NCBI GenBank assembly: GCA_021796115.1
Contig: JAJYOP010000007.1
Span: forward strand, 6,867-70,866
DNA length: 64,000 nucleotides
Origin: a bacterium
GTDB taxonomy: Bacteria > Omnitrophota > Gorgyraeia > Duberdicusellales > 4484-171
Direction: 5' to 3'
Part shown: positions 5,060 to 56,290 of the stretch, one piece after another
Layout of the letters: the number at the start of each line of letters is the position of its first letter
Numbering within the stretch: position 1 is the first letter of the stretch
Translations under genes and position numbers: made by a program
The notes under the pieces: generated by a model
What the model was told of the DNA's origin: nothing
What the model saw: only the letters and a program-made list of their open reading frames with translations
Databases searched by the model: none

Positions 5060-7699
5060 ATGAAATCCAACGAGTTACGCAAAAAATATTTAAAATTTTT
5101 CGCGAAGAAAAATCACAAGATTTTTCCTTCAGACAGCCTTATCCCTGACGATCCAAGCGTGCTTTTTACGCCGGCAGGGATGAATCAATTTAAATCCTAC
5201 TTTTTGGGCGAAAAGACCGATGTTAAGCGGGTAACATCTTCCCAGAAATGCCTGCGCGCCGGCGACCTTGATGAAGTCGGCCGCACGCCGTACCATCACA
5301 CTTTTTTTGAAATGCTCGGGAATTTTTCTTTCGGCGATTATTTTAAACGGGAAGCCATCCAATTTGCCTGGGAATTCCTGTCTTGCGAATTAAACATGAA
5401 GGAAAAGGATATTTGGATTTCCGTTTACAAGGATGATAATGAAGCGTATACGATATGGAAAAATGAAATTGGCATACCGGCACAAAAAATAGTAAAACTT
5501 GGCGAAGATAAAAATTTCTGGCCGGCAAACGCACCGACAAACGGCCCCGATGGCCCTTGCGGTCCATGCTCAGAAATATTTTTTGACCGAGGCTCTAGCG
5601 TTGGCTGCGGTAAGTCTACCTGTAGCCCAGCCTGCGGCTGCCCGCGTTTTGTTGAATTCTGGAACCTGGTTTTTACCCAGTTTAACCGCCAGGGTGTAAA
5701 TAATTTAAAACCATTGCCGCAGAAAAATATCGATACTGGCATGGGCCTTGAGAGAATGGCTGCGATATTACAGGGTAAAGTTTCGAATTTTGAAATCGAC
5801 ATCCTTGAACCGGCAGTTACCTTTGTTGTAAAATTTCTTAAAGCAGATATCAGTAACCCCAGAGATAAAAGTTTCGTTAATGCCATAGTTGACCACGCAA
5901 GAGCTGCAACTTTTGCAATTTGTGACGGCGTTTATCCTTCAAATGAAGATCGAGGCTATGTTATCAGGAAAATTATCAGAAAAGCTTTGTACCATGCGCA
6001 TATTTTAGCCAAGAAAGAAGCGTTTTTATATAGAATGGTGGAATTATATGCCGAACTCATGCAGGAACCATACCCTGAAATCGGCTCAAAGAAAAACGTA
6101 ATTGCCAAAGTCATACGCACAGAAGAAGATAAATTCATTTCTAGTTTAAAAGATGCTGAATCGCAATTTTTCCTGATTGCCAAAAATCTGGAAAAAAATA
6201 AGAGCGATACGGTTCTAGCAGGGGATGTATTTAAATTGTATGACACTTATGGCCTTCCGCTTGAGCTGACCAAAGAAATGGCAGCAAGATCTTTGCTTAA
6301 AATTGATGAAAACGGGTTCAAAAAACTTCTTAGCATTCAGCAAGAGCGTTCAAGAAAAAGCAGTATGTTTGACGAAAATATATTTAAGGCAGAGGGTATA
6401 ATTTTTAAAGAAACAACGGAATTTACAGGTTATGGCGAAAGCGAGATTAAAACGAAAATCCTGCATATGGTAAAGCTTGAGGCGGACAATGTTTCAAAGA
6501 GCGCCGAAGTAAAAGAGTTAGACACCGGCGAAGAGGGGGTAATTGTTTTAGATAAAACATGTTTTTATCCGGAAGGTGGCGGCCAATTAACCGATAAAGG
6601 GAAGATTTCTACGAAAGACGGAGAATTTTTAGTCGATAAAGTTTTTCGCAGCGCGCACGCTATCCTTCATAAAGGGAAAGTTACCAGAGGAAAAATTTCT
6701 AAAACCACAGTTCACGGTTCGATAGATTTACAAAGGCGCCAGGCATTGAAAAGAGCGCACACAGCTACGCATCTGCTTCAGGCTGCCCTGCGCAAAGTCC
6801 TCGGCGAGCATGTTATGCAGCAAGGCTCATTAGTTGATGAAGACCGTCTTCGTTTTGACTTTACTCATTTTAAGGCGCTTGCTGAAGAGGAATTAAAACG
6901 CGTGGAAGATATTGTTAACGGGTTTGTGCTTGATTCAGACAAGATAATTAAGGAAGAACTTTCTTACAAAGAGGCAAAATCCCGCGGTGCGCTTGCATTT
7001 TTTAAGGATAAATATAAAGATACCGTCCGCGTAGTTTCTATAGGAAGTTACAGCAAAGAGCTCTGTGGCGGCACACACCTTGATTTGACTTCCGAGGCAG
7101 GTACGTTCATGATAGTTAGCGAGTCGTCAATTGCCAGCGGCATAAGAAGAATTGAGGCAATAACCGGAAAAAAGGCTTACGAAAAAATTAAGGAATATAA
7201 AAATATTCTTTTGAATTTATCTGAAAAGGTAAAATGTCCTGTCGAAGAACTCATAAATTACTTTGAAAAACAGGAAAAAGATTTAAAAGATGCCAGAGCG
7301 GCTCTTTCTCTTAACGAAAAGCAAAACATCTCAGCTAAACTTAAAGAGGCATTGCAATCCAAAAAAGAAATCAACGGGATAGACTATCTGGCTTATGAAT
7401 TGAAAAATACCAGCGGAACAGGGCTCATCGAAGCTTCGGATATATTAAGAAAAGAAATTCCGGAATTATTCATTCTGCTTATTTCTGAGGCTAACGGGAG
7501 AAATGTCTTTGTCTGTTCGGTAACCAAGGCCCTCCTTGAGAAGGATATCAGTGCCGCAAAATTCGTTTCCTCGTATAAAGACGAATTACAACTTCGGGGC
7601 GGTGGCAAAGACGCGCTTGTTCAGGGAGTCATAACTAACAGGCTAGAGGATTTTTTAGTAAAAGCGGAAAACTGTATCGTTAAATTTTTGACAAAATAA
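5060..7699 (+). CDS. alaS: alanine--tRNA ligase
   Basis: 879 aa; class II AlaRS N-terminal core (FTPAGMNQFK, RAGDLDEVG), editing-domain motifs HTATHLL and CGGTHL. Confidence 0.97.
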   Translation: MKSNELRKKYLKFFAKKNHKIFPSDSLIPDDPSVLFTPAGMNQFKSYFLGEKTDVKRVTSSQKCLRAGDLDEVGRTPYHHTFFEMLGNFSFGDYFKREAIQFAWEFLSCELNMKEKDIWISVYKDDNEAYTIWKNEIGIPAQKIVKLGEDKNFWPANAPTNGPDGPCGPCSEIFFDRGSSVGCGKSTCSPACGCPRFVEFWNLVFTQFNRQGVNNLKPLPQKNIDTGMGLERMAAILQGKVSNFEIDILEPAVTFVVKFLKADISNPRDKSFVNAIVDHARAATFAICDGVYPSNEDRGYVIRKIIRKALYHAHILAKKEAFLYRMVELYAELMQEPYPEIGSKKNVIAKVIRTEEDKFISSLKDAESQFFLIAKNLEKNKSDTVLAGDVFKLYDTYGLPLELTKEMAARSLLKIDENGFKKLLSIQQERSRKSSMFDENIFKAEGIIFKETTEFTGYGESEIKTKILHMVKLEADNVSKSAEVKELDTGEEGVIVLDKTCFYPEGGGQLTDKGKISTKDGEFLVDKVFRSAHAILHKGKVTRGKISKTTVHGSIDLQRRQALKRAHTATHLLQAALRKVLGEHVMQQGSLVDEDRLRFDFTHFKALAEEELKRVEDIVNGFVLDSDKIIKEELSYKEAKSRGALAFFKDKYKDTVRVVSIGSYSKELCGGTHLDLTSEAGTFMIVSESSIASGIRRIEAITGKKAYEKIKEYKNILLNLSEKVKCPVEELINYFEKQEKDLKDARAALSLNEKQNISAKLKEALQSKKEINGIDYLAYELKNTSGTGLIEASDILRKEIPELFILLISEANGRNVFVCSVTKALLEKDISAAKFVSSYKDELQLRGGGKDALVQGVITNRLEDFLVKAENCIVKFLTK

Positions 7700-7708
7700 A
7701 GATGTTAT

Positions 7709-7782
7709 CGCGGATGCAAACGAATGGTTACGGATGTCACGGATTAATCCGTTGAATCCGCTATAATCCGTATGAATCCGTG
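7709..7782. promoter_or_regulatory. phased CGGAT x4 / ATCCG x4 word array containing TATAAT, upstream of hisD
   Basis: CGGAT/CGAAT at 7711, 7721, 7731, 7740; ATCCG at 7747, 7756, 7766, 7776; TATAAT 7762-7767; hisD ATG 7801. Confidence 0.6.
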
Positions 7783-7800
7783 TTATAAAAAAATAAAGCT

Positions 7801-11644: not shown

Positions 11645-11662
11645 CATAATAATTATGTAACC

Positions 11663-13095
11663 CCAAAGTGATAATGTCCCTTTTGGGCAAAGTAAAAATG
11701 TCCCCTTTTACAATTGCTATAATATCTCTCGAAGGAGGGTATTATGGCAAAGAGAGGCATTATCACAATGAAGCAGGAGGAACTAAAACGGCTCTACATC
11801 GTCCGTCAGGTACTGGATAAAAAGCTAAAACAGGTAGAAGCAGCGGATAAGCTTGCTTTGAGCTACCGTCAGACTAAACGAATAACTAAAAGAATAAAAG
11901 AAGAAGGCGATAAGGGAATAGTTCATAAATCAAGAGGTAAGCCCTCCCATAACCGTATAGCTCTTAAGATAAAGAATAAAGTAATCAATCTCTGCAGAGA
12001 TAAATATAAAGGCTTTGGCCCTACCCTAGCTACAGAAAAGCTCTTTGAAATCGAAAAGATAAGGCTTAGCGATGAAACTCTTCGGAACTGGCTCACCCAG
12101 GAAGGCCTTTGGCAGCGCAAGCGCAAACATAAAGAATACCGCGCCTGGCGCGAACGCAAGCACCGTTTCGGAGAAATGATTCAGTGGGACGGCTCGCATC
12201 ATGCCTGGCTTGAAGATAGAGGCCCCTGGTGCGTGTTGATCAGCCAGATTGACGATGCTACCAATAAGAAATCCGGACAGTTCTATCCTTACGAAGGAAC
12301 TTTGCCTGCCTTCTCAAGCCTTAAACAATACATAAGACGCTACGGCATACCCCATAGCATCTATTTAGACAGGCACACAACGTATAAATCAAACAAGAAG
12401 CTCTCAATTAAAGACGAACTGAATGACAGAGAATTCTTAAGCCGGTTCGAAAGAGCCGCCAAGGAATTAGGCATAACCATAATCCATGCCAATTCTGCTC
12501 CGGCTAAAGGAAGAATCGAGCGCTCTTTTAAAACCGACCAGGATCGCCTGGTCAAGGAAATGCGCCTTGCGAATATAGCTACCATTGAAGAAGCCAATAA
12601 GTTCCTAAAGAAATACTGGCCTAAACATAACAAAAGATTCAGCGTAAAATCCATAGAAGAAGGCAACCTGCACAGGCCGATACCCGAGGGCACAGACTTA
12701 GACGCTATCCTTTGCAAAAAGACCGAGCATGTTTTAAGAAACGATTTTACTGTCGGCCATAACAAGAAGTTCTATCAGATACTGGATAAGGCGATAGGCA
12801 AAAGCGTAACCGTCGAAGAAAGAATAAATGGCGCCCTTTATATTACTTACAACGGCAGGAAGCTTAAATACAAACAGGTAAAGGCCAGGCCAAAACAGAA
12901 TAAACCAAAGCTTAAACTAAAGAACAGAGTTAAACCGTCCATGGAACACCCCTGGAGGAAACCTTACGGTAAAAAGACGACAGCTTACGGAAAAGCGCTC
13001 TATCAAAATAAAAGCTATACCGAGGAATTAGTATTATCAGAGGTCTAAAAAGAGGCCATTTTAACTTTGGTAAAAAAGGGACATTTTAACTTTGG
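11663..13095 (+). mobile_element. ISNCY-type insertion sequence with duplicated ~23-bp terminal motifs
   Basis: Left end carries CCAAAGTGATAATGTCCCTTTTGG + GCAAAGTAAAAATGTCCCCTTTT. Right end carries the reverse complements AAAAGAGGCCATTTTAACTTTGG + AAAAGGGACATTTTAACTTTGG. One transposase gene inside. No flanking direct repeat seen. Confidence 0.85.
11744..13048 (+). CDS. DDE (rve-type) transposase, ISNCY family-like
   Basis: 434 aa. N-terminal HTH (KQEELKRLYIVRQVLDKKLKQVEAADKLALSYRQTKR). Candidate DDE residues in QWDGSHH, IYLDRH, GRIERSF. Architecture recalled from ISNCY-family transposases. Confidence 0.85.
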   Translation: MAKRGIITMKQEELKRLYIVRQVLDKKLKQVEAADKLALSYRQTKRITKRIKEEGDKGIVHKSRGKPSHNRIALKIKNKVINLCRDKYKGFGPTLATEKLFEIEKIRLSDETLRNWLTQEGLWQRKRKHKEYRAWRERKHRFGEMIQWDGSHHAWLEDRGPWCVLISQIDDATNKKSGQFYPYEGTLPAFSSLKQYIRRYGIPHSIYLDRHTTYKSNKKLSIKDELNDREFLSRFERAAKELGITIIHANSAPAKGRIERSFKTDQDRLVKEMRLANIATIEEANKFLKKYWPKHNKRFSVKSIEEGNLHRPIPEGTDLDAILCKKTEHVLRNDFTVGHNKKFYQILDKAIGKSVTVEERINGALYITYNGRKLKYKQVKARPKQNKPKLKLKNRVKPSMEHPWRKPYGKKTTAYGKALYQNKSYTEELVLSEV

Positions 13096-13118
13096 CTTGA
13101 CAACTCGCATTATAGTTG

Positions 13119-13146
13119 TTGACATGTCCCAAAATAAGCGTAATAT
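13119..13146 (+). promoter_or_regulatory. sigma70-type promoter (TTGACA-N16-TAATAT) for the csp leader
   Basis: TTGACA 13119-13124, TAATAT 13141-13146. Confidence 0.5.
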
Positions 13147-13183
13147 AAAAATACTTTGATAAAAGAAGATTAGCATTCTTGAG

Positions 13184-13220
13184 CCGTAAGGTTGGGAGGA
13201 ACTAACCTTACGGTTTTTTT
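13184..13220 (+). terminator. intrinsic terminator/attenuator inside the csp 5' leader
   Basis: CCGTAAGGTT (13184-13193) / AACCTTACGG (13204-13213), 10-nt loop, followed by T7 (13214-13220); lies 39 nt upstream of csp ATG. Confidence 0.7.
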
Positions 13221-13258
13221 GTTTATATGGGGCGTAAATCCATTAGGGGGGGGTAAAG

Positions 13259-13465
13259 ATGCATACAGGTAAGATTAAAAAATTAATAAAAGACCGCGGT
13301 TTTGGTTTTATCAGCGATACGGACGGCAACGAAGTATTTTTTCATAAGAACAGTTTAATTGATGTCCAATTTGAAGCCTTGGCCGAAAACCAGGCAGTGG
13401 AATTCGAAACGAAAAAAACCCCAAAAGGATCAAACGCTATCAACATTCGTATAGCAAATGAATAA
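13259..13465 (+). CDS. cold-shock domain protein
   Basis: 68 aa; RNP1-like GFGFI and RNP2-like VFFH motifs. Confidence 0.9.
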   Translation: MHTGKIKKLIKDRGFGFISDTDGNEVFFHKNSLIDVQFEALAENQAVEFETKKTPKGSNAINIRIANE

Positions 13466-14213
13466 GGATGGCATTCTAGCCGTAAGTAATTCCTGGTTAA
13501 TCTTCAAACAGTCGATACAGTCGGTGATAATATGGATTGTAGGGGCTGCTTTGATTGCTATCTTGTTCTTGGCGATGGCGTTATTGTCTATATTGCTCTA
13601 TCCTTTTGACCGTAAGCGTAAAATTGTTCACGCTCAGTGTTTTTGGTGGGCAGATGCAGTTATTGCGTTGAATCCTTATTGGAACGTACAAATAAAAGGC
13701 CTTGATAATATAGATCATAAAAAGACATATGTCATTGTGTCTAACCATCAGAGTTTGGCTGATATTGTATTAATGTATAAGACCAAGATGCAATTTAAGT
13801 GGGTAGCCAAAGATAGCCTTTTCAAAATTCCGGTGCTGGGGTGGAATATGTTACTTGCGCGCCATATCCGGATCGAGCGCGGTGATTTCTCAAGCATCAA
13901 GAAAGCTTACACGGAAGCTGGGGAATGGTTACGTAAAAAAGTATCGGTGGTATTCTTTCCCGAAGGGACCAGAAGCGTAAAAGAGAAAATAGGAGAGTTT
14001 CAAAATGGCGCATTTAAACTTGCGATCAAAGAAAAAGTTCCCATTTTGCCGGTGTTGATCAAGGGGACCAGAGACGCCATTCCCAAAGGAAGCTGGAGAT
14101 TTACGACTAAAATTTCCTGTGTTATAGAAGTGCTTGCGCCAATAGAAACCCATAATTTGCTCTCCAGCGATTTTACTAAATTGCGCGATTCTGTTAAAGC
14201 TCAATTATCTTGA
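13458..14213 (+). CDS. plsC: 1-acyl-sn-glycerol-3-phosphate acyltransferase
   Basis: NHQSLADI (NHxxxxD) and FPEGTRS motifs; N-terminal TM; ATG overlaps csp stop by 8 nt. Confidence 0.88.
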   Translation: MNKDGILAVSNSWLIFKQSIQSVIIWIVGAALIAILFLAMALLSILLYPFDRKRKIVHAQCFWWADAVIALNPYWNVQIKGLDNIDHKKTYVIVSNHQSLADIVLMYKTKMQFKWVAKDSLFKIPVLGWNMLLARHIRIERGDFSSIKKAYTEAGEWLRKKVSVVFFPEGTRSVKEKIGEFQNGAFKLAIKEKVPILPVLIKGTRDAIPKGSWRFTTKISCVIEVLAPIETHNLLSSDFTKLRDSVKAQLS

Positions 14214-14345
14214 TAAGGAAACAATAGGATATTAAAAACTGCAGTAACTAACCGTTTGATTAATTTTCTTAAATATGGTTTTTTCAAATATAATGTCTAT
14301 CTTAAAATGAATAGACACGCTTATCTGTTAGCAATCCAGAGAGTT

Positions 14346-14405
14346 AGGTGATTTATAGACAAAAAATAACGGACAAATTGGACAAATTTCGCGAGGAAAT
14401 CACCT
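14346..14405. repeat. hairpin/word element (AGGTGATTT ... AAATCACCT) with GACAAA words
   Basis: AGGTGATTT 14346-14354 is the reverse complement of AAATCACCT 14397-14405. The loop carries GACAAA at 14358, 14372, 14381. The ACGGACAAATT..GCTAAT part recurs at 29096-29136. Confidence 0.55.
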
Positions 14406-14423
14406 CTCTAAACCGCTAATTTC

Positions 14424-14452
14424 TTGATAATCACCACGTTTAGCCCTATAAT
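14424..14452 (+). promoter_or_regulatory. near-consensus sigma70 promoter TTGATA-N17-TATAAT
   Basis: TTGATA 14424-14429, TATAAT 14447-14452. Confidence 0.6.
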
Positions 14453-14458
14453 ACATAC

Positions 14459-14584
14459 CTGTAGACAAGGAGAGGTTTCCCTTCGTGGCATACGAGTGGG
14501 ACCCCAGTCTTTCTCGTCTCCAAGTGAGAGGAGAGAAGGTTAAGGCCCTGGTTACTTAACGTGACCAGGGCCTTAATTTTTGTT
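14459..14584 (+). ncRNA. candidate ~125-nt small RNA (promoter- and terminator-bounded copy of a dispersed repeat)
   Basis: Starts ~7 nt after TATAAT and ends at a 14-bp GC-rich hairpin plus U-run. No ATG/RBS inside. The 5' part is homologous to 52513-52578. Confidence 0.45.
14542..14584 (+). terminator. strong intrinsic terminator
   Basis: AAGGCCCTGGTTAC (14542-14555) / GTGACCAGGGCCTT (14561-14574), loop TTAAC, then AATTTTTGTT. Confidence 0.8.
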
Positions 14585-14588
14585 GCGC

Positions 14589-14696
14589 CATATTTCGGAG
14601 TTTCGAAAAGAATAAAGAAAGCCTTCCAATCTTCTAAAAGCTGTTTGTAGAGAAGATATCCTCGTAGGTAATATTTCTGCTCGTCCAAGGAAAACC
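14589..14696. repeat. dispersed intergenic repeat, family 1 (copy b)
   Basis: CCATAT..TTCGAAA..ATAAAGAAAGCC..AGCTGT..GAGA.GA..CCTCGT aligns at roughly 70-75 % (hand count) with 18920-19030. Confidence 0.6.
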
Positions 14697-14747
14697 GTTA
14701 CATCTATGCTAACAATCTATAGGTAATTAATAATATTTAACAATACG

Positions 14748-14775
14748 GGAACTTTTTTTATTTTGGATTGTCTAA
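14748..14775 (+). promoter_or_regulatory. ECF (RpoE-like) promoter GGAACTT-N16-TCTAA
   Basis: GGAACTT 14748-14754, GTCTAA 14770-14775; ~60-85 nt upstream of the first ORF of the operon that ends with an ECF sigma/anti-sigma pair. Confidence 0.55.
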
Positions 14776-14857
14776 TATAAAAGAACCAAGAAACAAAATA
14801 TAAAGGGCTCAAATTATATTAAAAAGGAGGCAAAATGAAAACATCAAGGTACTTATC

Positions 14858-15145
14858 ATGGACAATTTGTTAGTATCAATGGTTTGTGCTGCGTCGGTAT
14901 TATTACCAAAAATTTATGCTCAAAATATAGAAGATAATAACACAGATAATACTTTTAATAACGGCGATATGAACGAACAAAATCAAATAGTTGATTCAAG
15001 CCAAGACGTAAACGATACCTTAAGTAATCTTGAGACTATTAAAAATGATCAGCAGAAGAATACAGACGAAAACACAAAAGATAGCGATAATTCAGACAAA
15101 AATAACTCAAGCGATAATACAGGTAGCCAAGACGATTCAAAATAA
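14858..15145 (+). CDS. small secreted Asp/Asn-rich low-complexity protein (start uncertain, possible frameshift with ATG 14835)
   Basis: 95-aa ORF with hydrophobic N-terminus ending ..KIYA/QN; the only good RBS (AAGGAGG) serves ATG 14835 in another frame that stops after 12 codons. Confidence 0.4.
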   Translation: MDNLLVSMVCAASVLLPKIYAQNIEDNNTDNTFNNGDMNEQNQIVDSSQDVNDTLSNLETIKNDQQKNTDENTKDSDNSDKNNSSDNTGSQDDSK

Positions 15146-15267
15146 AAAACCATACATCTATAATGAGTTACCTAATAGTTAGTATTTTACTATTGCTTTA
15201 TATCGCACTTGTCTAAAAAACGCTTTTTCTCAAAACAGTTAGGCAAACATTATTAATGGGGGTAAAC

Positions 15268-15804
15268 ATGGCAAAACAGATTTTAAAAAGCAAAATTTGG
15301 ATAATTGCAATACTCGTATTTGCATTTTTACTATCTTCTTCTAACGCCTTTGCTTGGGGGCACGGTGGCAGATATTACTGGCATGGCGGAGGATGGCACA
15401 GGGATGGTTGGTTCTGGGGCGGAGTAGCAGTGAGCGCTTTAACTGTAGGAGCTGTAGTTGCTTCTCTCCCGCCTCATTATAAGGTTGTCTATACCGGTAA
15501 CGCCCCTTATTATTACGATGGCACTTATTATTACCAAAGCTACCCAAATGGTTACGTTATCATGGCGCCACCAGTGATTCAACCGGCGCCAGTCGTTGTA
15601 GTGCAGCCCCAAACTGCAACTGTTCCTGTTGCTCAGCTGCAAGCTCATAATCCAAATACAGTAGTCGTTAACGTTCCTAATCAAAATGGTACCTACACCG
15701 CGGTTACGCTCACAAAACATAAAACTGGTTATCTAGGGCCGCAAGGTGAGTATTACGAAGGGCATCCTACGGTTAAACAATTAAGAGTTTTGTACGGTAA
15801 ATAA
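15268..15804 (+). CDS. secreted Gly/Trp/Tyr-rich protein with conserved 45-aa C-terminal module
   Basis: Signal peptide ..SSNAFA/WGHGG; YYYDGTYYY segment; Pro/Val linker; C-terminus VNVPNQNGTYTAVTL..GYLGPQGEYYEGHPTVKQLRVLYGK shared with next gene. Confidence 0.65.
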   Translation: MAKQILKSKIWIIAILVFAFLLSSSNAFAWGHGGRYYWHGGGWHRDGWFWGGVAVSALTVGAVVASLPPHYKVVYTGNAPYYYDGTYYYQSYPNGYVIMAPPVIQPAPVVVVQPQTATVPVAQLQAHNPNTVVVNVPNQNGTYTAVTLTKHKTGYLGPQGEYYEGHPTVKQLRVLYGK

Positions 15805-15835
15805 CATTTCAATTAACTAATGGTATGAAAAGCTT

Positions 15836-16369
15836 ATGTTTAAAGTAAAAAGAAATACATTCTTAACAATTCTTAGTGTATCGACTTTTCTGTTGACCGG
15901 CTGTTCAGCGTTTGCTCCTTCGACGCAACAATTTAATGTCAACACAAACGCTTCCGATGCCCAGATATTCATCAATGGTTTTTACGTCGGCAGCGGAAGC
16001 GTAAAAACTATAGTTCCCCGTGATCACCCGCTTTATGTAACAGCTCAAAAGAACGGTTATCATCCAATATCTATGTATGTTGGCACAAGATTAAGCAAAT
16101 CCGGGACACTTGATTCTCTCGGAGCCATATTCATTCTGCCTATCATCGGTCTTGCATTTCCTGGTTCCCAAGAACTAGCAATGGAGACTGTTTCGTTAAT
16201 GTTTCCGATAATACAAAAAAATGCGCTGGCCGTAAATGTTCCCAATTCCAACGGTAGCTATACCGTTGTTAACTTGATACAGCGGGGCAATGGCTATATT
16301 GGGCCGCAGGGAGAATATTATGAAAGTTACCCAACAGTTGACCAATTAAAAGTTTTGTATGGTAAATAG
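15836..16369 (+). CDS. PEGA-domain lipoprotein with the same 45-aa C-terminal module
   Basis: Lipobox LLTGC; PEGA-like ASDAQIFINGFYVGSGSVKTIVP..YVTAQKNGY; C-terminus VNVPNSNGSYTVVNL..GYIGPQGEYYESYPTVDQLKVLYGK. Confidence 0.7.
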   Translation: MFKVKRNTFLTILSVSTFLLTGCSAFAPSTQQFNVNTNASDAQIFINGFYVGSGSVKTIVPRDHPLYVTAQKNGYHPISMYVGTRLSKSGTLDSLGAIFILPIIGLAFPGSQELAMETVSLMFPIIQKNALAVNVPNSNGSYTVVNLIQRGNGYIGPQGEYYESYPTVDQLKVLYGK

Positions 16370-16397
16370 GGGTTAGTAAACAAAAAAGGAGGAAGTC

Positions 16398-16925
16398 ATG
16401 AAATATGTTATTAGGTCTGTTGTTGCAATGTTTTGTGCGATGGCATTTTTTTCTCCATTAGCCTTTGCAGAAAAAAATTCTGGCGAATGCAATTTTACAC
16501 CGAAATATGGCAGGACATTGTTTGATAAAGATCACGAAGGAATGTTTTTGCGCAAAGCGCATTTAATTCTGATGAAAGCCAACGAATTGGGCCTAAGCGA
16601 TGAACAAATACAAAAGATAAAGACGCTCGATTACAATCTTAAAAAAAGCTTCATAAAGGATGATGCAGACATTAAATCATTGGCCTTGGATACAAGAGAG
16701 GCAACGGGCAAAGATGACATCGATCTCAATACTGTAAATTCACTCATCGACAAGAAATACGCCGCTAAAGCCGAAAAAGTTAAAGACGATATCCAGGCTT
16801 ATGCAAATCTCAAAAAGATTTTGACTCTGGAACAGAATAAAAAATTAAAAGAGATGCGATTTGCAGGTATGAAGGAAAGATTTTGGCATGGAAGGGATTT
16901 GCATCAGAAACCGGTGGAAAAATAA
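16398..16925 (+). CDS. periplasmic Spy/CpxP-like (LTxxQ-type) protein
   Basis: Signal peptide ..PLAFA/EK; helical, LSDEQIQKIK and LTLEQNKKLKEM repeats. Confidence 0.55.
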   Translation: MKYVIRSVVAMFCAMAFFSPLAFAEKNSGECNFTPKYGRTLFDKDHEGMFLRKAHLILMKANELGLSDEQIQKIKTLDYNLKKSFIKDDADIKSLALDTREATGKDDIDLNTVNSLIDKKYAAKAEKVKDDIQAYANLKKILTLEQNKKLKEMRFAGMKERFWHGRDLHQKPVEK

Positions 16926-17105
16926 CGAAGAGTATGATCCTGGAAGCTTTCGATAACTATATTATCGGAGGCTTCCAATAAAGGATGAATAGGGATTTAT
17001 AATAAGCTTTACTTACCAGTTAATTGCGTTATATTATGGTCAAATATATTAATGCAGTAAAGAAATTTTACCGGGCCGGCTTATCTAAGGTTAGCGAAAA
17101 TACCA

Positions 17106-17669
17106 ATGCAAAATATTACCAGGGAAACTTTGATAAAAGCTCAAAAGAGGGATCTTAGGGCATTTGAGGATATCTATAAAGAAAGTTCCGGGTTTGTTTA
17201 CAACGTTGCCTTGCGTATTTTGAATAACAGGCAGGATTCTGAAGAGGTTGTACAGGAAGTTTTCTTAAGCATTTATCATAATCTTAAAAATTTCCGTTTT
17301 CATTCTTCTTTTAAAACCTGGGTTTATAGGATTACGGTAAATTGCGCAATCAATCATATTAATAAAATGACTAAAGAAAAAAATAAATTAAAGGAATACA
17401 GTAATAGTTTGATTCAAACAACAGATAAATTTCAAGCACCGCAGATAGAAAAGATAGACACCGCACAGGAGGAAATGATCAATTCGCTCCTGGGAGCCCT
17501 CGATCCGGATCAAAGAACCTGCATAGTTTTAAGAAGCTTTGAGGGATTAAGTTACAAGGAGATATCTGACACACTGAAAATCAATATCAATACCGTGCGT
17601 ACCAGGTTAAAGAGAGCAAGAGAGAAATTATTGAACCTTAGAAAAGAGGTAGCAGGAAATGAATTGTAA
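17106..17669 (+). CDS. ECF-type RNA polymerase sigma factor
   Basis: 187 aa; sigma70 region 2 (VQEVFLSIYHNLKNF..WVYRITVNCAINH) and region 4 HTH (LSYKEISDTLKININTVRTRLKRAREKL). Confidence 0.9.
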   Translation: MQNITRETLIKAQKRDLRAFEDIYKESSGFVYNVALRILNNRQDSEEVVQEVFLSIYHNLKNFRFHSSFKTWVYRITVNCAINHINKMTKEKNKLKEYSNSLIQTTDKFQAPQIEKIDTAQEEMINSLLGALDPDQRTCIVLRSFEGLSYKEISDTLKININTVRTRLKRAREKLLNLRKEVAGNEL

Positions 17670-18156
17670 AAAAATCAAAGAATTAATTCTTACCGATTAT
17701 ATTGATAATCAAATGTGTGAGAAAGATAAAACATGTCTTGAATCCCATTTTGTTTATTGCAGGGAATGTAGAGATTTTTTTACGGCAGTAAAAAAGGCTG
17801 CAGTTGAGCCATTTATCAATACAAAACAGAATACGCCGCCGGAATTTATTTGGGAGCGGATAAAAGCGTCAATCTTCGCCGGCCAAAAAGAAAAAATAGG
17901 ATTTTCCGCCAATTTAAAAGAAAGGTTAAAAGGTATTTTTTATATACCCAAACCAGTTTTAGTCATGTCGACGATAACGATAGCAACGCTCATTATTGTA
18001 TTATTTGGTGTTTTGAAATTTGCCAATAAAGAAACTTCGCAAATTAGTATGGAAGAACAGGCTGAATATTCCATTTATTCGATGGAGGCGCCTGCTAGCA
18101 CCATTTTGAATAATGATAATGGATTTGGGACTTTAGTTGAAAAATATTTTTTATAA
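17659..18156 (+). CDS. anti-sigma factor (zf-HC2, single-pass membrane)
   Basis: H-x3-C-x2-C motif (HFVYCRECRD), TM VLVMSTITIATLIIVLFGVL; 11-nt overlap with sigma gene. Confidence 0.75.
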   Translation: MNCKKIKELILTDYIDNQMCEKDKTCLESHFVYCRECRDFFTAVKKAAVEPFINTKQNTPPEFIWERIKASIFAGQKEKIGFSANLKERLKGIFYIPKPVLVMSTITIATLIIVLFGVLKFANKETSQISMEEQAEYSIYSMEAPASTILNNDNGFGTLVEKYFL

Positions 18157-18180
18157 TTTTAAGAGGAGGAAAAAATATCC

Positions 18181-18660
18181 ATGAGAAAGTTAAATTTGCT
18201 TGCTATTCTAACTATTGCCGCATTAAGCGTATCTGTGCCTGCAGGCTATGCGGCTTCGCCAACGCCGGCGAATGGCCAGAAAAGTTCATTCTTGCAAAAA
18301 ATGGATACAAAACGAAAACAGCTTTATGACGAGCTTGGTTTAAACAATGAACAAAGGAAATTATTGGAAGCAAATAAAGATAAACATAGAGAGCAAACCA
18401 AAGCTTTGTTTTCACAAATCCATCAAAACATGGATTTGCTTCGTCAGGAGCTGGAGAAGAACGAATTAGACATGCAGGCAATTTATAAAACTAATAATGA
18501 ACTCAAAGAACTGCAAGCGCAAATGTTTGATAACAGGTTAGAGCGTATACTAGAGGTAAGAAAAATATTGACCCCCGAACAATTCAAAAAATTTGAAGAA
18601 AAAATGAATAAACGTATGTCACATTTTAAGAATAGGGACAAATATGGTAAAGATAGATAA
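18181..18660 (+). CDS. periplasmic Spy/CpxP-like (LTxxQ-type) protein
   Basis: Signal peptide ..PAGYA/AS; LNNEQRKLLE, LTPEQFKKFEE repeats. Confidence 0.65.
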   Translation: MRKLNLLAILTIAALSVSVPAGYAASPTPANGQKSSFLQKMDTKRKQLYDELGLNNEQRKLLEANKDKHREQTKALFSQIHQNMDLLRQELEKNELDMQAIYKTNNELKELQAQMFDNRLERILEVRKILTPEQFKKFEEKMNKRMSHFKNRDKYGKDR

Positions 18661-18919
18661 TAGTTTTAAGCAAATCATAATCATGAAAAATGTACCAGTT
18701 AATTTCCATTATTTTTATCAAGTGGCGAATAAAATACTATTGTATTCTTTGCTATTTGTTTTTAGCTTTTTTGTTATTTCTTTAATTTCTTCACGCCAGA
18801 ATAGGTTTTCTTGACTATATTAAAGAAGCGCTGATTATTAATTAATAGCTGACTATTAATAGATTGCTATGTTACCCTCTAGCCTTTAATGCCAGCATCA
18901 AGAGTGCCTCTTTATTGTA

Positions 18920-19030
18920 CCATATCTCTGTTATTCGAAATGGATAAAGAAAGCCATTCTAACTTTCAAAGAGCTGTAAACGGAGAGGAGAGACCCTCGT
19001 GCGATAGTCTGCCCTGACGAGAATCACCTC
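18920..19030. repeat. dispersed intergenic repeat, family 1 (copy c)
   Basis: CCATATCTCTGTTATTCGAAATGGATAAAGAAAGCC..AGCTGTAAACGGAGAGGAGAGACCCTCGTGCGATAGTCTGCCCTGACGAGAATCACCTC. Aligns with 14589-14696 and 43718-43781. Followed by the palindromic hairpin TCATTCTTCTTTTC/GAAAAGAAATAGAATGA and then TATAAT. Confidence 0.6.
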
Positions 19031-19108
19031 ATCATTCTTCTTTTCGAAAAGAAATAGAATGATATAATTAAAAAATCACAAATGAAGATATTCTAACTCA
19101 TAAAATTT

Positions 19109-43634: not shown

Positions 43635-43675
43635 ATTAACTTTTTAAATTCCTTTTTGAACTGCCCCCATCACCT

Positions 43676-43781
43676 TTCTGTACGGAACAAGGGGAACCGC
43701 CTCTCAAATTATGAAATAGCTGTCTACGGAGAGGATGTCCTTCGGGCAATATTTTTGTCCGGCCTGGCGAAAGTTACCTTC
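43676..43781. repeat. two tandem copies of dispersed repeat family 1 (copies d, e)
   Basis: TTCTGTACGGAACAAGGGGAACCGCCTC (43676-43704) and AGCTGTCTACGGAGAGGATGTCCTTCGGGCAATATTTTTGTCCGGCCTGGCGAAAGTTACCTTC (43718-43781); align with 18974-19030. Confidence 0.6.
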
Positions 43782-43912
43782 AAAATTTTCGAATCGCTAA
43801 CAACATAGAAATTATTTATCCTAGAGGAGCACTTTTATTTGAAGGAAGCAGCCTGATTGTTATAAGAGACCTCTGGAAAACTACCTTGAAACCGCCAAAA
43901 CACTAAATCACT

Positions 43913-44052: not shown

Positions 44053-44081
44053 TTGACAAGAGCATCAATTTAACGTATTAT
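44053..44081 (+). promoter_or_regulatory. sigma70-type promoter TTGACA-N17-TATTAT for arsR operon
   Basis: TTGACA 44053-44058, TATTAT 44076-44081, RBS AAGGAGG, GTG start 44109. Confidence 0.6.
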
Positions 44082-49914: not shown

Positions 49915-50064
49915 GCTTTCTTTCTAACAATAACCTTGCCGCAGGATGTAAAAACTAATAAAATGAGCGCGGAATATAAAAATGGTGTTTTGAAAATCAG
50001 CATGCCGAGAATTGAAACTAACAAAAAAGGCGCGGGGGCTGGCATAAAAATTCCTGTAAAATAA
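49915..50064 (+). pseudogene. 3' remnant of an Hsp20/alpha-crystallin gene
   Basis: Open frame after the in-frame TAA 49912-49914 reads AFFLTITLPQDVKTNKMSAEYKNGVLKISMPRIETNKK..*. This is the C-terminal ..R.I.LP..V....I.A.Y.NGVL.I..PK.. block of small heat-shock proteins; the ~100 N-terminal residues are absent. Confidence 0.7.
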
Positions 50065-50085
50065 AATATCATACATACCTCATTT

Positions 50086-50293
50086 TTCTGAACATTCCCC
50101 GGAATTTAAGGGTATCTTGGCATAACTCTATGTAAAACAAGCGATAACGAAGATAAAAATCTATGATTCTTCAGGGGGCGGAGGCAAACGGATTTTAGCG
50201 GATGCAGACGGATAAAAAACCTATAATTATCCGTATGCATCCACAATCATCCGTGACATCCGTCCTTAAAAATAAAAAAATGGGGAAGCTCCA
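50086..50293 (+). repeat. 208-bp cassette, copy A (direct repeat of 55992-56199)
   Basis: Hand alignment: 205/208 identical, no indels (differences at 50119, 50237, 50265). Contains CGGAG/CGGAT at 50179, 50189, 50199, 50209; TATAAT at 50222-50227; ATCCG/ATCCA at 50229, 50239, 50249, 50258. Confidence 0.95.
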
Positions 50294-52432: not shown

Positions 52433-52512
52433 ATGTTATCGGAAACTGCAAGCAGATATTAGGCCATTTTTGAATCTCTAAATAACTTCCCGGCGAATGC
52501 CTCCTTGCCAAA

Positions 52513-52605
52513 TTTAGCCCTACCCTACATACCTGTAAAACGGGAAAGCTTTCTCCTTGTGATATATGAGTGGGATCCATATTTTTGCCTTTGGCAAAAA
52601 TATGG
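52513..52605. repeat. dispersed repeat family 1 (copy f) plus 13-bp perfect hairpin
   Basis: TTTAGCCCTACCCTACATACCTGTAAAACGGGAAAGCTTTCTCCTTGTGATATATGAGTGGGATCC aligns (~75 %, hand count) with 14439-14503 but carries TACCCT where that copy has TATAAT. Hairpin CCATATTTTTGCC/GGCAAAAATATGG at 52577-52605. Confidence 0.6.
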
Positions 52606-52713
52606 AACAATTGCGCAATAGATAATAAAAGATATGGCAAAGCTCAATCGCGGTCTATTCTTTATTGCTCGATTGTTCAAACTGCCCTTAGGCGGGTTCA
52701 GTTAAAAAAAGAC

Positions 52714-55753: not shown

Positions 55754-55991
55754 AAAGACGATAAGCTGGCCCTTGACAAGATTCAGCGTTATTTTTATGC
55801 TGTAAGAAAAAGGAATGTTTTATCGGACAGGATTACCTTTGTTCAGAAAAAACTTTATTGCTTTTTTCATGGATTCGAAAAAGATGATTAGCACTAAGAC
55901 CAGCATGACAATGGTAAGGATGGCGTTTAAATTTCCCTGGAAAGTGTGTTTAGGCAGGTAATTATTTTATGTTATCAAGGCCAGCCACAAA

Positions 55992-56199
55992 TTCTGAACA
56001 TTCCCCGGAATTTAAGGGTATCTTTGCATAACTCTATGTAAAACAAGCGATAACGAAGATAAAAATCTATGATTCTTCAGGGGGCGGAGGCAAACGGATT
56101 TTAGCGGATGCAGACGGATAAAAAACCTATAATTATCCGTATACATCCACAATCATCCGTGACATCCGTCATTAAAAATAAAAAAATGGGGAAGCTCCA
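55992..56199 (+). repeat. 208-bp cassette, copy B (direct repeat of 50086-50293)
   Basis: 205/208 identical to copy A. TATAAT 56128-56133 flanked by CGGAK at 56085, 56095, 56105, 56115 and ATCCR at 56135, 56145, 56155, 56164. Confidence 0.95.
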
Positions 56200-56290
56200 A
56201 TCACAAATTTTCTTGAAAATTACCACAGTTAGTCCTATAATAACCTCCTTATACGCCTGGAGATTTTGTCAAATATTAAAAGGAAGTGCA

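Follow-up and report, generated by a model that had tools for sequence, protein, structure and literature searches.

The 645-bp spacer downstream of plsC holds a promoter and an intrinsic terminator on either side of one copy (A1) of a dispersed intergenic repeat, and a short transcript predicted to start from the promoter at 14424-14452 and to end at about 14582 is well supported by these signals. We tentatively read A1 as a free-standing, repeat-derived gene for a non-coding small RNA of about 122-126 nt, an assignment in which our confidence stays somewhat below even. The repeat family is small and has not been described before. The analysed window comprises 64,000 nt with a G+C content of about 40%, and all its credible genes are on the plus strand. 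The spacer lies between plsC (13458-14213) and a co-oriented cluster (14858-18660), which encodes a small secreted protein, a DUF6515 protein, LTXXQ/CpxP-like proteins, an ECF sigma factor and a Metal_resist protein. Two other assemblies carry DNA that is 100% identical across the A1 locus, and the homologues of PlsC, of the DUF6515 protein and of the AcrB-family protein are labelled Candidatus Omnitrophota or Omnitrophica by their sources. The elements of the spacer follow each other in the order inverted core, promoter, A1 core, hairpin, terminator and a second repeat unit (B3):

14375-14425, minus strand: sixth copy of the repeat core, degenerate and inverted, abutting the -35 box
14401-14599, plus strand: A1 unit, whose core makes up the 5' half of the predicted RNA
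14424-14452, plus strand: sigma-70-type promoter TTGATA-N17-TATAAT, matching 11 of 12 consensus positions
14453-14509, plus strand: A1 core (CM R1, 52.8 bits, E = 6e-11; fold; manual pair table)
14512-14534, plus strand: second hairpin of the predicted RNA, specific to the A1 copy
14535-14584, plus strand: intrinsic terminator with a 16-21-bp stem and the loop UUAAC, followed by UUUUUGUU
14579-14759, plus strand: B3, a type-B unit with its core at 14635-14701, beginning in the terminator U-run

The near-consensus promoter reported in a preliminary description of this DNA was recovered as described, and the predicted transcription start (about 14457-14460) coincides with the beginning of the A1 repeat core. 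Four plus-strand sites in the whole window match at least 11 of the 12 consensus positions (1452, 14424, 44053 and 56213), compared with a mean of 1.2 in block shuffles. All four are intergenic, and the other three are found 28-254 nt upstream of recA, of an ArsR-family gene and of a malic-enzyme-like gene. From -40 to +1, spacer included, 14420-14453 shares 85% identity with the promoter that precedes the malic-enzyme-like gene by 51 nt (56209-56242); it is a paralogue of a genuine gene promoter. Hence the 14424 promoter is of a class that the organism evidently uses. It is the sole plus-strand site within the 645-bp spacer with at least 10 of 12 matches; between the terminator and 14858 the best sigma-70 match reaches 9/12 (14737-14764), in a scan that is blind to ECF-type promoters. 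The site upstream of recA is a perfect 12/12 promoter (TTGACA-N16-TATAAT, 1452-1479) at a distance of 254 nt, implying a long predicted leader for recA.

The hairpin with U-run behind the promoter, also claimed before, was found with 16-nt arms (14540-14555 and 14561-14576) that are 94% complementary around a 5-nt loop. The stem can be extended to 14535-14581, which gives 21 pairs followed by TTTTTGTT, and its fold has about -28 to -33 kcal/mol (-33.1 with z = -6.4). A scan of the window for intergenic hairpin and T-run sites on the plus strand gave only three at dG <= -20, the A1 terminator being the strongest; a simple terminator scan did not list the 14535-14584 hairpin. Since it is the only strong site of this kind that the window scan found downstream of csp-plsC, it probably also ends the csp-plsC operon. 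The predicted RNA of about 122-126 nt folds into hairpin H2, the second hairpin and the terminator (z = -6.3, mostly from the terminator) and leaves the purine tract AAGGAGAGG unpaired. No antiterminator fold was found, and the 5' arm of the terminator stays free of competing pairing until its 3' arm has been transcribed. From the terminator to the next start codon (14858) there are 281 nt. The proposal of a discrete transcript of about 125 nt fits well with the promoter and terminator signals, with the repeat and with the lack of an Rfam family.

The window contains six copies of the repeat, namely two A-type units (A1 and A2), three B-type units (B1, B2 and B3) and the inverted core. All six are intergenic; five are on the gene strand, with cores starting at 14453, 14635, 18968, 43714 and 52527, and one is inverted. 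Outside the plsC spacer these are:

18911-19090, plus strand: B1, a type-B unit with its core at 18968-19034, after a Metal_resist/LTXXQ gene
43658-43836, plus strand: B2, a type-B unit with its core at 43714-43784, 24 nt after an AcrB-family stop codon
52471-52689, plus strand: A2, the type-A paralogue with its core at 52527-52583 and a decayed promoter

The five plus-strand units share a core of about 50 nt, A(G/C)CTGT-NN-AC-(N)GGAGAGG-N4-6-CCYTCG(T/G)G. After this core the base of a stem is kept (YUCG...CGAR, a bulge, then CC/GG), and according to the manual pair table the insert in the stem varies, with 3 nt in the A-type and 14-21 nt in the B-type. The core of A1 holds the start ACCTGT, the SD-like AAGGAGAGG at 14467-14475 and H2 (14478-14487 paired with 14491-14501, loop GCA). 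A1 and A2 match with 75% identity over 71 nt (14434-14504 and 52508-52578), which bears out the earlier claim of a repeat at 52.5 kb with TACCCT at -10. A2 is followed by a perfect 14-bp hairpin (52576-52606) without a U-run. The B units have a length of about 165-180 nt and are 72-73% identical, B3 and B1 being the most similar pair with 73%; the second repeat unit noticed earlier right after the terminator is B3, and it does recur, as B1 and B2. The 14858-18660 cluster lies between B3 and B1, which are direct repeats, and B2 is located upstream of the ArsR promoter at 44053. The CM of the core detected exactly the five plus-strand copies in the window with E <= 2e-5, the next match having E = 0.7.

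In the equipment with promoters the copies differ. In A2, TACCCT stands in place of TATAAT and there is no -35 box, and the sigma-70 scan found no site with at least 10/12 matches just upstream of B3, B1 and B2. Of the idea that A1 may be the only expressed copy, this much stands: no other copy has a good sigma-70 promoter. For the type-B units an ECF-type promoter was considered and rejected, as there was no convincing -35/-10 and no motif shared with the region upstream of the sigma gene.

The sixth copy was assigned from the comparison of its reverse complement with the B2 core. The resulting score of 37 was reached by 0 of 1000 shuffles and, among 5116 51-mers of the window, by known copies only; weak CM and nhmmer matches also occur at this position. 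A stretch of 26 nt (14392-14417) is 77% complementary to 14639-14664 in the B3 core. An invertible promoter (inverton) was rejected, because the arms are only 77% complementary and the same orientation is present at 100% identity in two independent assemblies; no invertase-type domain was found among the window proteins scanned. Very weak matches to the core model (E = 2.5-3.2) were seen on the plus strand in two further intergenic places, 50048-50085 and 55794-55859. They include the strings TACATACCT and GCTGTAAGAAAAAGGAATG, are situated beside 208-nt repeats and may be further decayed copies. The 208-nt sequence itself forms a direct repeat with 99% identity (50086-50293 and 55992-56199) just upstream of the promoters of a TauE-family gene and of the malic-enzyme-like gene. 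It contains many reiterated ATCCGT/ACGGAT motifs, and a similar cluster of them occurs at 7706-7785 between alaS and hisD. Such sequences could serve as arrays of binding sites for a regulator or belong to another repeat family.

Several observations bear on the question of whether the element acts as RNA or as DNA. A1 and A2 are identical at 18 of 23 positions in the promoter spacer, 14 of 20 in the core and 21 of 28 in H2, and beyond that at chance level (12/30 and 14/50). In the H2 stem A1 and A2 differ by four substitutions, all of which preserve pairing as G-U wobbles. This works only in an RNA from the plus strand; on the other strand they would be A-C mismatches. The basal stem of H2 is found around inserts of 3-51 nt in up to seven sequences, counting one doubtful member (L012, see below). 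Because the similarity is confined to the promoter spacer, core and H2, the pairing is kept by wobble and no ORF is conserved, an RNA-level element on the gene strand is favoured. Among the copies compared, the two partners of a pair never changed together in a compensatory way, and the predicted folds of the B copies are no more stable than those of shuffled sequence; the structural evidence is for these reasons suggestive only. The CM alignment A7 was left out of the pair statistics, since its registers for L020 (see below) and the B copies disagree with the manual alignment. A local SD:anti-SD hairpin (GAGG/CCUC) with a 5' P1 stem was discarded; the pairing is possible in several copies, in shifting registers that are too inconsistent.

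Two ORFs overlap the element:

14485-14559, plus strand: GTG ORF of 24 codons (MAYEWDPSLSRLQVRGEKVKALVT), not conserved, no Pfam match
14446-14688, minus strand: ORF of 80 aa, not a gene, no Pfam match

The minus-strand ORF had been called a shadow of the repeats, and this label is justified, since the ORF over A2 is in a different frame; coding on this strand was rejected for the same reason and for the lack of a family match. The interval had been described as free of ATG and RBS. It indeed has no ATG, but the SD-like AAGGAGAGG precedes the GTG at 14485 by 9 nt, so the second half of this description is incorrect. That A1 is a small-protein gene, in which the 24-aa GTG ORF is translated from this tract, is nevertheless highly improbable. 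Apart from the spacing of tract and GTG, it could be argued for this possibility that A2 keeps the peptide xYEWDP with three synonymous third-position changes and that the arrangement of SD and GTG recurs in B1, L020 and L012. Yet A2 retains only codons 3-7 (YEWDP) of the ORF; the conservation ends after codon 7, and these codons are the 3' arm of H2. The ORF lengths among the copies are 24, 20, 2 and 53 codons with unrelated peptides, B1 having 2 codons, and no ORF of this kind exists in B2 and B3. Furthermore, the start codon would be buried in the H2 stem of the predicted fold, and the peptide matches no family.

Outside the window the repeat was hardly found. In five relatives with PlsC proteins of 82-88% identity, plsC is placed directly before a helicase or zinc-finger gene, and both spacer and element are absent from the orthologous position. 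No copy was present in about 110 kb of other Omnitrophota loci, about 60 kb of which came from the neighbourhoods of DUF6515 and AcrB homologues. A pattern scan of reference genomes gave 17 single, scattered matches. Similarity beyond the pattern itself was seen only in L020, where it is clear, and in L012, where it is doubtful. L020 is one locus in a MAG labelled Planctomycetia, and its similarity extends about 40 nt upstream of the search pattern (nhmmer E = 7e-6). The element lies just after a stop codon in gene orientation, and inside its H2 base CCCUCG...CGA-A-GGG lies a 51-nt insert with a hairpin of its own. By these similarities L020 is a probable true homologue of the core. L012 has seven further bases in common with L020 in a different context and remains doubtful as a family member. 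A tRNA-like reading of GGATTCGAAC in L020 was dropped, as ARAGORN finds nothing there. In a viral collection only chance matches occurred, all inside coding regions. As the sole probable homologue found outside, a distant one, is in the Planctomycetia-labelled MAG and the Omnitrophota DNA searched has none, the family appears to be rare and patchy.

The A1 RNA belongs to no curated RNA family. An Infernal scan with Rfam 15, as had been proposed, yielded no match at the gathering score in the window to 6S, SRP, tmRNA, RNase P or any other family, in line with the earlier inspection by eye. Scans at low threshold of 14150-14900, the whole window, the B2 unit and L020 gave only noise (E about 1), and ARAGORN reported no tRNA or tmRNA. 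In the literature we found nothing on non-coding or structured RNAs of Omnitrophota.

Multicopy families of intrinsically terminated small RNAs are known, for example LhrC1-5 in Listeria, the csRNAs of streptococci and the CcsR or "cuckoo" RNAs of alphaproteobacteria. A1 resembles them in its predicted length of about 100-130 nt, its own promoter and Rho-independent terminator, its intergenic paralogues, some of them adjacent, and a short conserved motif near a hairpin. The members of these families have C-rich anti-SD loops, and each copy is a transcription unit. Unlike these, the repeat described here has a purine-rich, SD-like conserved tract and a promoter in only one of six copies, and no orthologues were found for A1. 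Another type of comparison is offered by modular intergenic repeats such as BOX in S. pneumoniae, ERIC/IRU in enterobacteria and the Correia elements of Neisseria, which may be transcribed together with adjacent genes and bear signals resembling promoters or terminators. In the window, the repeat shares with them the dispersed intergenic occurrence and the modular build, with A- and B-type units around a common core. In contrast to these elements, its solitary units lack both terminal inverted repeats and an obvious target duplication, its copies are only 72-75% identical, and its orientation is biased to the gene strand.

A third comparison comes from the same genome. A conserved unit was noticed upstream of csp-plsC (13117-13222 in the window) and upstream of plsC in three relatives:

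L003, about 5870-5960: plsC leader
L006, about 5780-5880: plsC leader
L108, 1140-1250: plsC leader

It consists of a sigma-70-like promoter, AAAGATTAGNAAATC, a 12-15-bp hairpin (GCCGTAAAGG...CCTTTACGGC) with the conserved loop GGGCAYGACTACTAACC, and a T-run, in this order and 37-60 nt before the start codon. It has no Rfam match and has the look of a leader or attenuator conserved within the lineage, or of a small RNA. In both this unit and A1, co-oriented genes are preceded by a promoter with a strong hairpin and U-run no more than about 70-125 nt behind it. The plsC leader is close to its gene and shows orthologous conservation, whereas A1 is not conserved in relatives, is separated by 281 nt from the gene that follows and lacks an antiterminator fold. 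Since the lineage possesses such promoter-hairpin-terminator leaders, promoter plus terminator alone do not imply a free-standing small RNA here. Between the his genes and this leader an insertion sequence is inserted (11656-13102). Its ORF (11744-13048) encodes a transposase-like protein of 434 aa with HTH_28/HTH_23/HTH_32, its flanks are 29-nt inverted repeats (83%), and an identical copy exists on another contig (L026) beside ribosomal protein genes.

In the interpretation that we favour, the A1 transcription unit would have arisen from one copy of a dispersed intergenic repeat. Transcription would start at about 14457-14460, and the polymerase would terminate efficiently at the strong hairpin and release the small RNA; a small share of read-through transcription may extend into the genes downstream. 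The same terminator would also stop read-through from csp-plsC. In B3, B1 and B2 the core has no promoter of its own and follows or precedes a neighbouring gene, and the free RNA would present a core that is otherwise embedded in untranslated regions of mRNAs. Because the same core is present in neighbouring untranslated regions, a natural conjecture is that the A1 RNA mimics, or competes for, whatever recognises the core, for example the 30S subunit or an RNA-binding protein. Base pairing with targets, for which a prediction had been called for, received no support: over 60 start regions of the window the best duplex had -37.3 kcal/mol, compared with a mean of -39.4 in shuffles, and none was better.

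It would go further to regard the core, together with the basal stem of H2 and its variable insert, as a so far undescribed RNA motif shared by Omnitrophota and Planctomycetota, to which a protein or the ribosome binds and which is located in the untranslated regions of envelope-stress, efflux and cell-wall genes, with A1 as a dedicated, strongly expressed decoy that titrates the binding partner. We consider this improbable. As an idea it is reminiscent of the decoy small RNAs CsrB and RsmZ, free RNAs bearing a motif of mRNA leaders, and the core contains the A(N)GGA-like ACGGA/AAGGA. Unlike CsrB and RsmZ, the A1 RNA has only three GGA triplets, which is about the chance level, and they are outside the hairpin loops of the predicted fold.

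A1 has a promoter and a Rho-independent terminator of its own, as a free-standing small RNA gene should, and was not found conserved in relatives. The same arrangement could also belong to a terminated 5' leader (attenuator) of the cluster 14858-16925 or 14858-18660, with 14424 as the promoter of the cluster. In a possible variant, a ribosome on the 24-codon ORF would govern read-through: the stop codon of this ORF (TAA, 14557-14559) sits in the terminator loop, so that a translating ribosome would cover the 5' arm of the terminator; translation-coupled attenuators show a comparable placement. A leader would be consistent with the SD-like tract and GTG, with the lack of another plus-strand site of at least 10/12 in the spacer and with the common orientation of all genes. 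Moreover, read-through of leader terminators appears to be normal here, since a conserved promoter-hairpin-terminator leader precedes csp/plsC in the window and plsC in three relatives. Yet the ORF is conserved neither in length nor in sequence, and the ECF-sigma cluster may use a promoter that is not of the sigma-70 type and is invisible to the scan. Furthermore, the terminator stands out by its exceptional strength, the search for an alternative antiterminator structure found none, and the next gene is 281 nt away. For these three reasons the free-standing small RNA is favoured, and we judge the leader unlikely.

The inverted copy speaks against a small RNA in that it would suit a DNA-level or mobile element as well. 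It is conceivable, if still on the doubtful side, that the A1 region is left over from a mobile or recombining repeat of MITE-like or foldback type and has no function of its own. The cores would then be decayed long terminal repeats, with the inverted pair 14375-14425 and 14635-14701 on either side of an old insertion; the promoter and terminator would have come as cargo or arisen by accident, and the terminator would serve csp-plsC. In agreement with a remnant, there are six copies in 64 kb as opposed to none in about 110 kb of related genomes, the distribution is patchy with one copy in a Planctomycetia-labelled MAG, and an inverted copy flanks the unit. Likewise, the direct repeats B3 and B1 surround a cluster of lower G+C, the best relatives of its ECF sigma factor reach no more than 36% identity (JGI metagenome scan), the local synteny is not common to relatives, and the B copies are thermodynamically unremarkable. 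However, terminal inverted repeats are missing from the solitary units B1, B2 and A2, only the A1 region being bracketed by inverted cores, and no target-site duplication was seen by eye beside the inverted pair. No transposase is associated with the repeat, and the nearby insertion sequence has unrelated ends. As the copies are only 72-75% alike, such an element would not have been mobile recently. Nor does a remnant account easily for the co-orientation of five of the six copies with transcription, for H2 substitutions that keep pairing on the plus strand only, or for the gene-proximal position of all other near-consensus promoters.

Omnitrophota is an abundant phylum known mainly from metagenomes. 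If the transcript is confirmed, A1 would be an early candidate for a small RNA or leader in this phylum, and it would show how a dispersed repeat becomes a gene by means of a promoter cassette and a terminator. If the decoy interpretation were true, it would reveal a Csr/Rsm-like regulatory circuit in an uncultured phylum. If A1 is only a decaying repeat, its value would be for annotation, since it explains the spurious 80-aa ORF and marks the csp-plsC terminator. The five plus one copies and the L020 homologue provide a seed alignment (model R1) for an Infernal census.

The region between B3 and B1 also gave some minor observations. The 4.1-kb DUF6515/LTXXQ/ECF-sigma cluster has a slightly lower G+C content (0.35-0.38) and may be an acquired island or a recombination-prone cassette. 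At its beginning (14820-14930) a perfect SD (AAGGAGG) precedes the ATG at 14836, whose ORF has only 12 codons (MKTSRYLSWTIC) and overlaps the called start at 14858 (MDNLLVSMVCAASVLLPKIYAQ...) in another frame. Together the two read like one signal peptide broken by a 1-nt frameshift, which may be an assembly error or real; two other assemblies have the same sequence.
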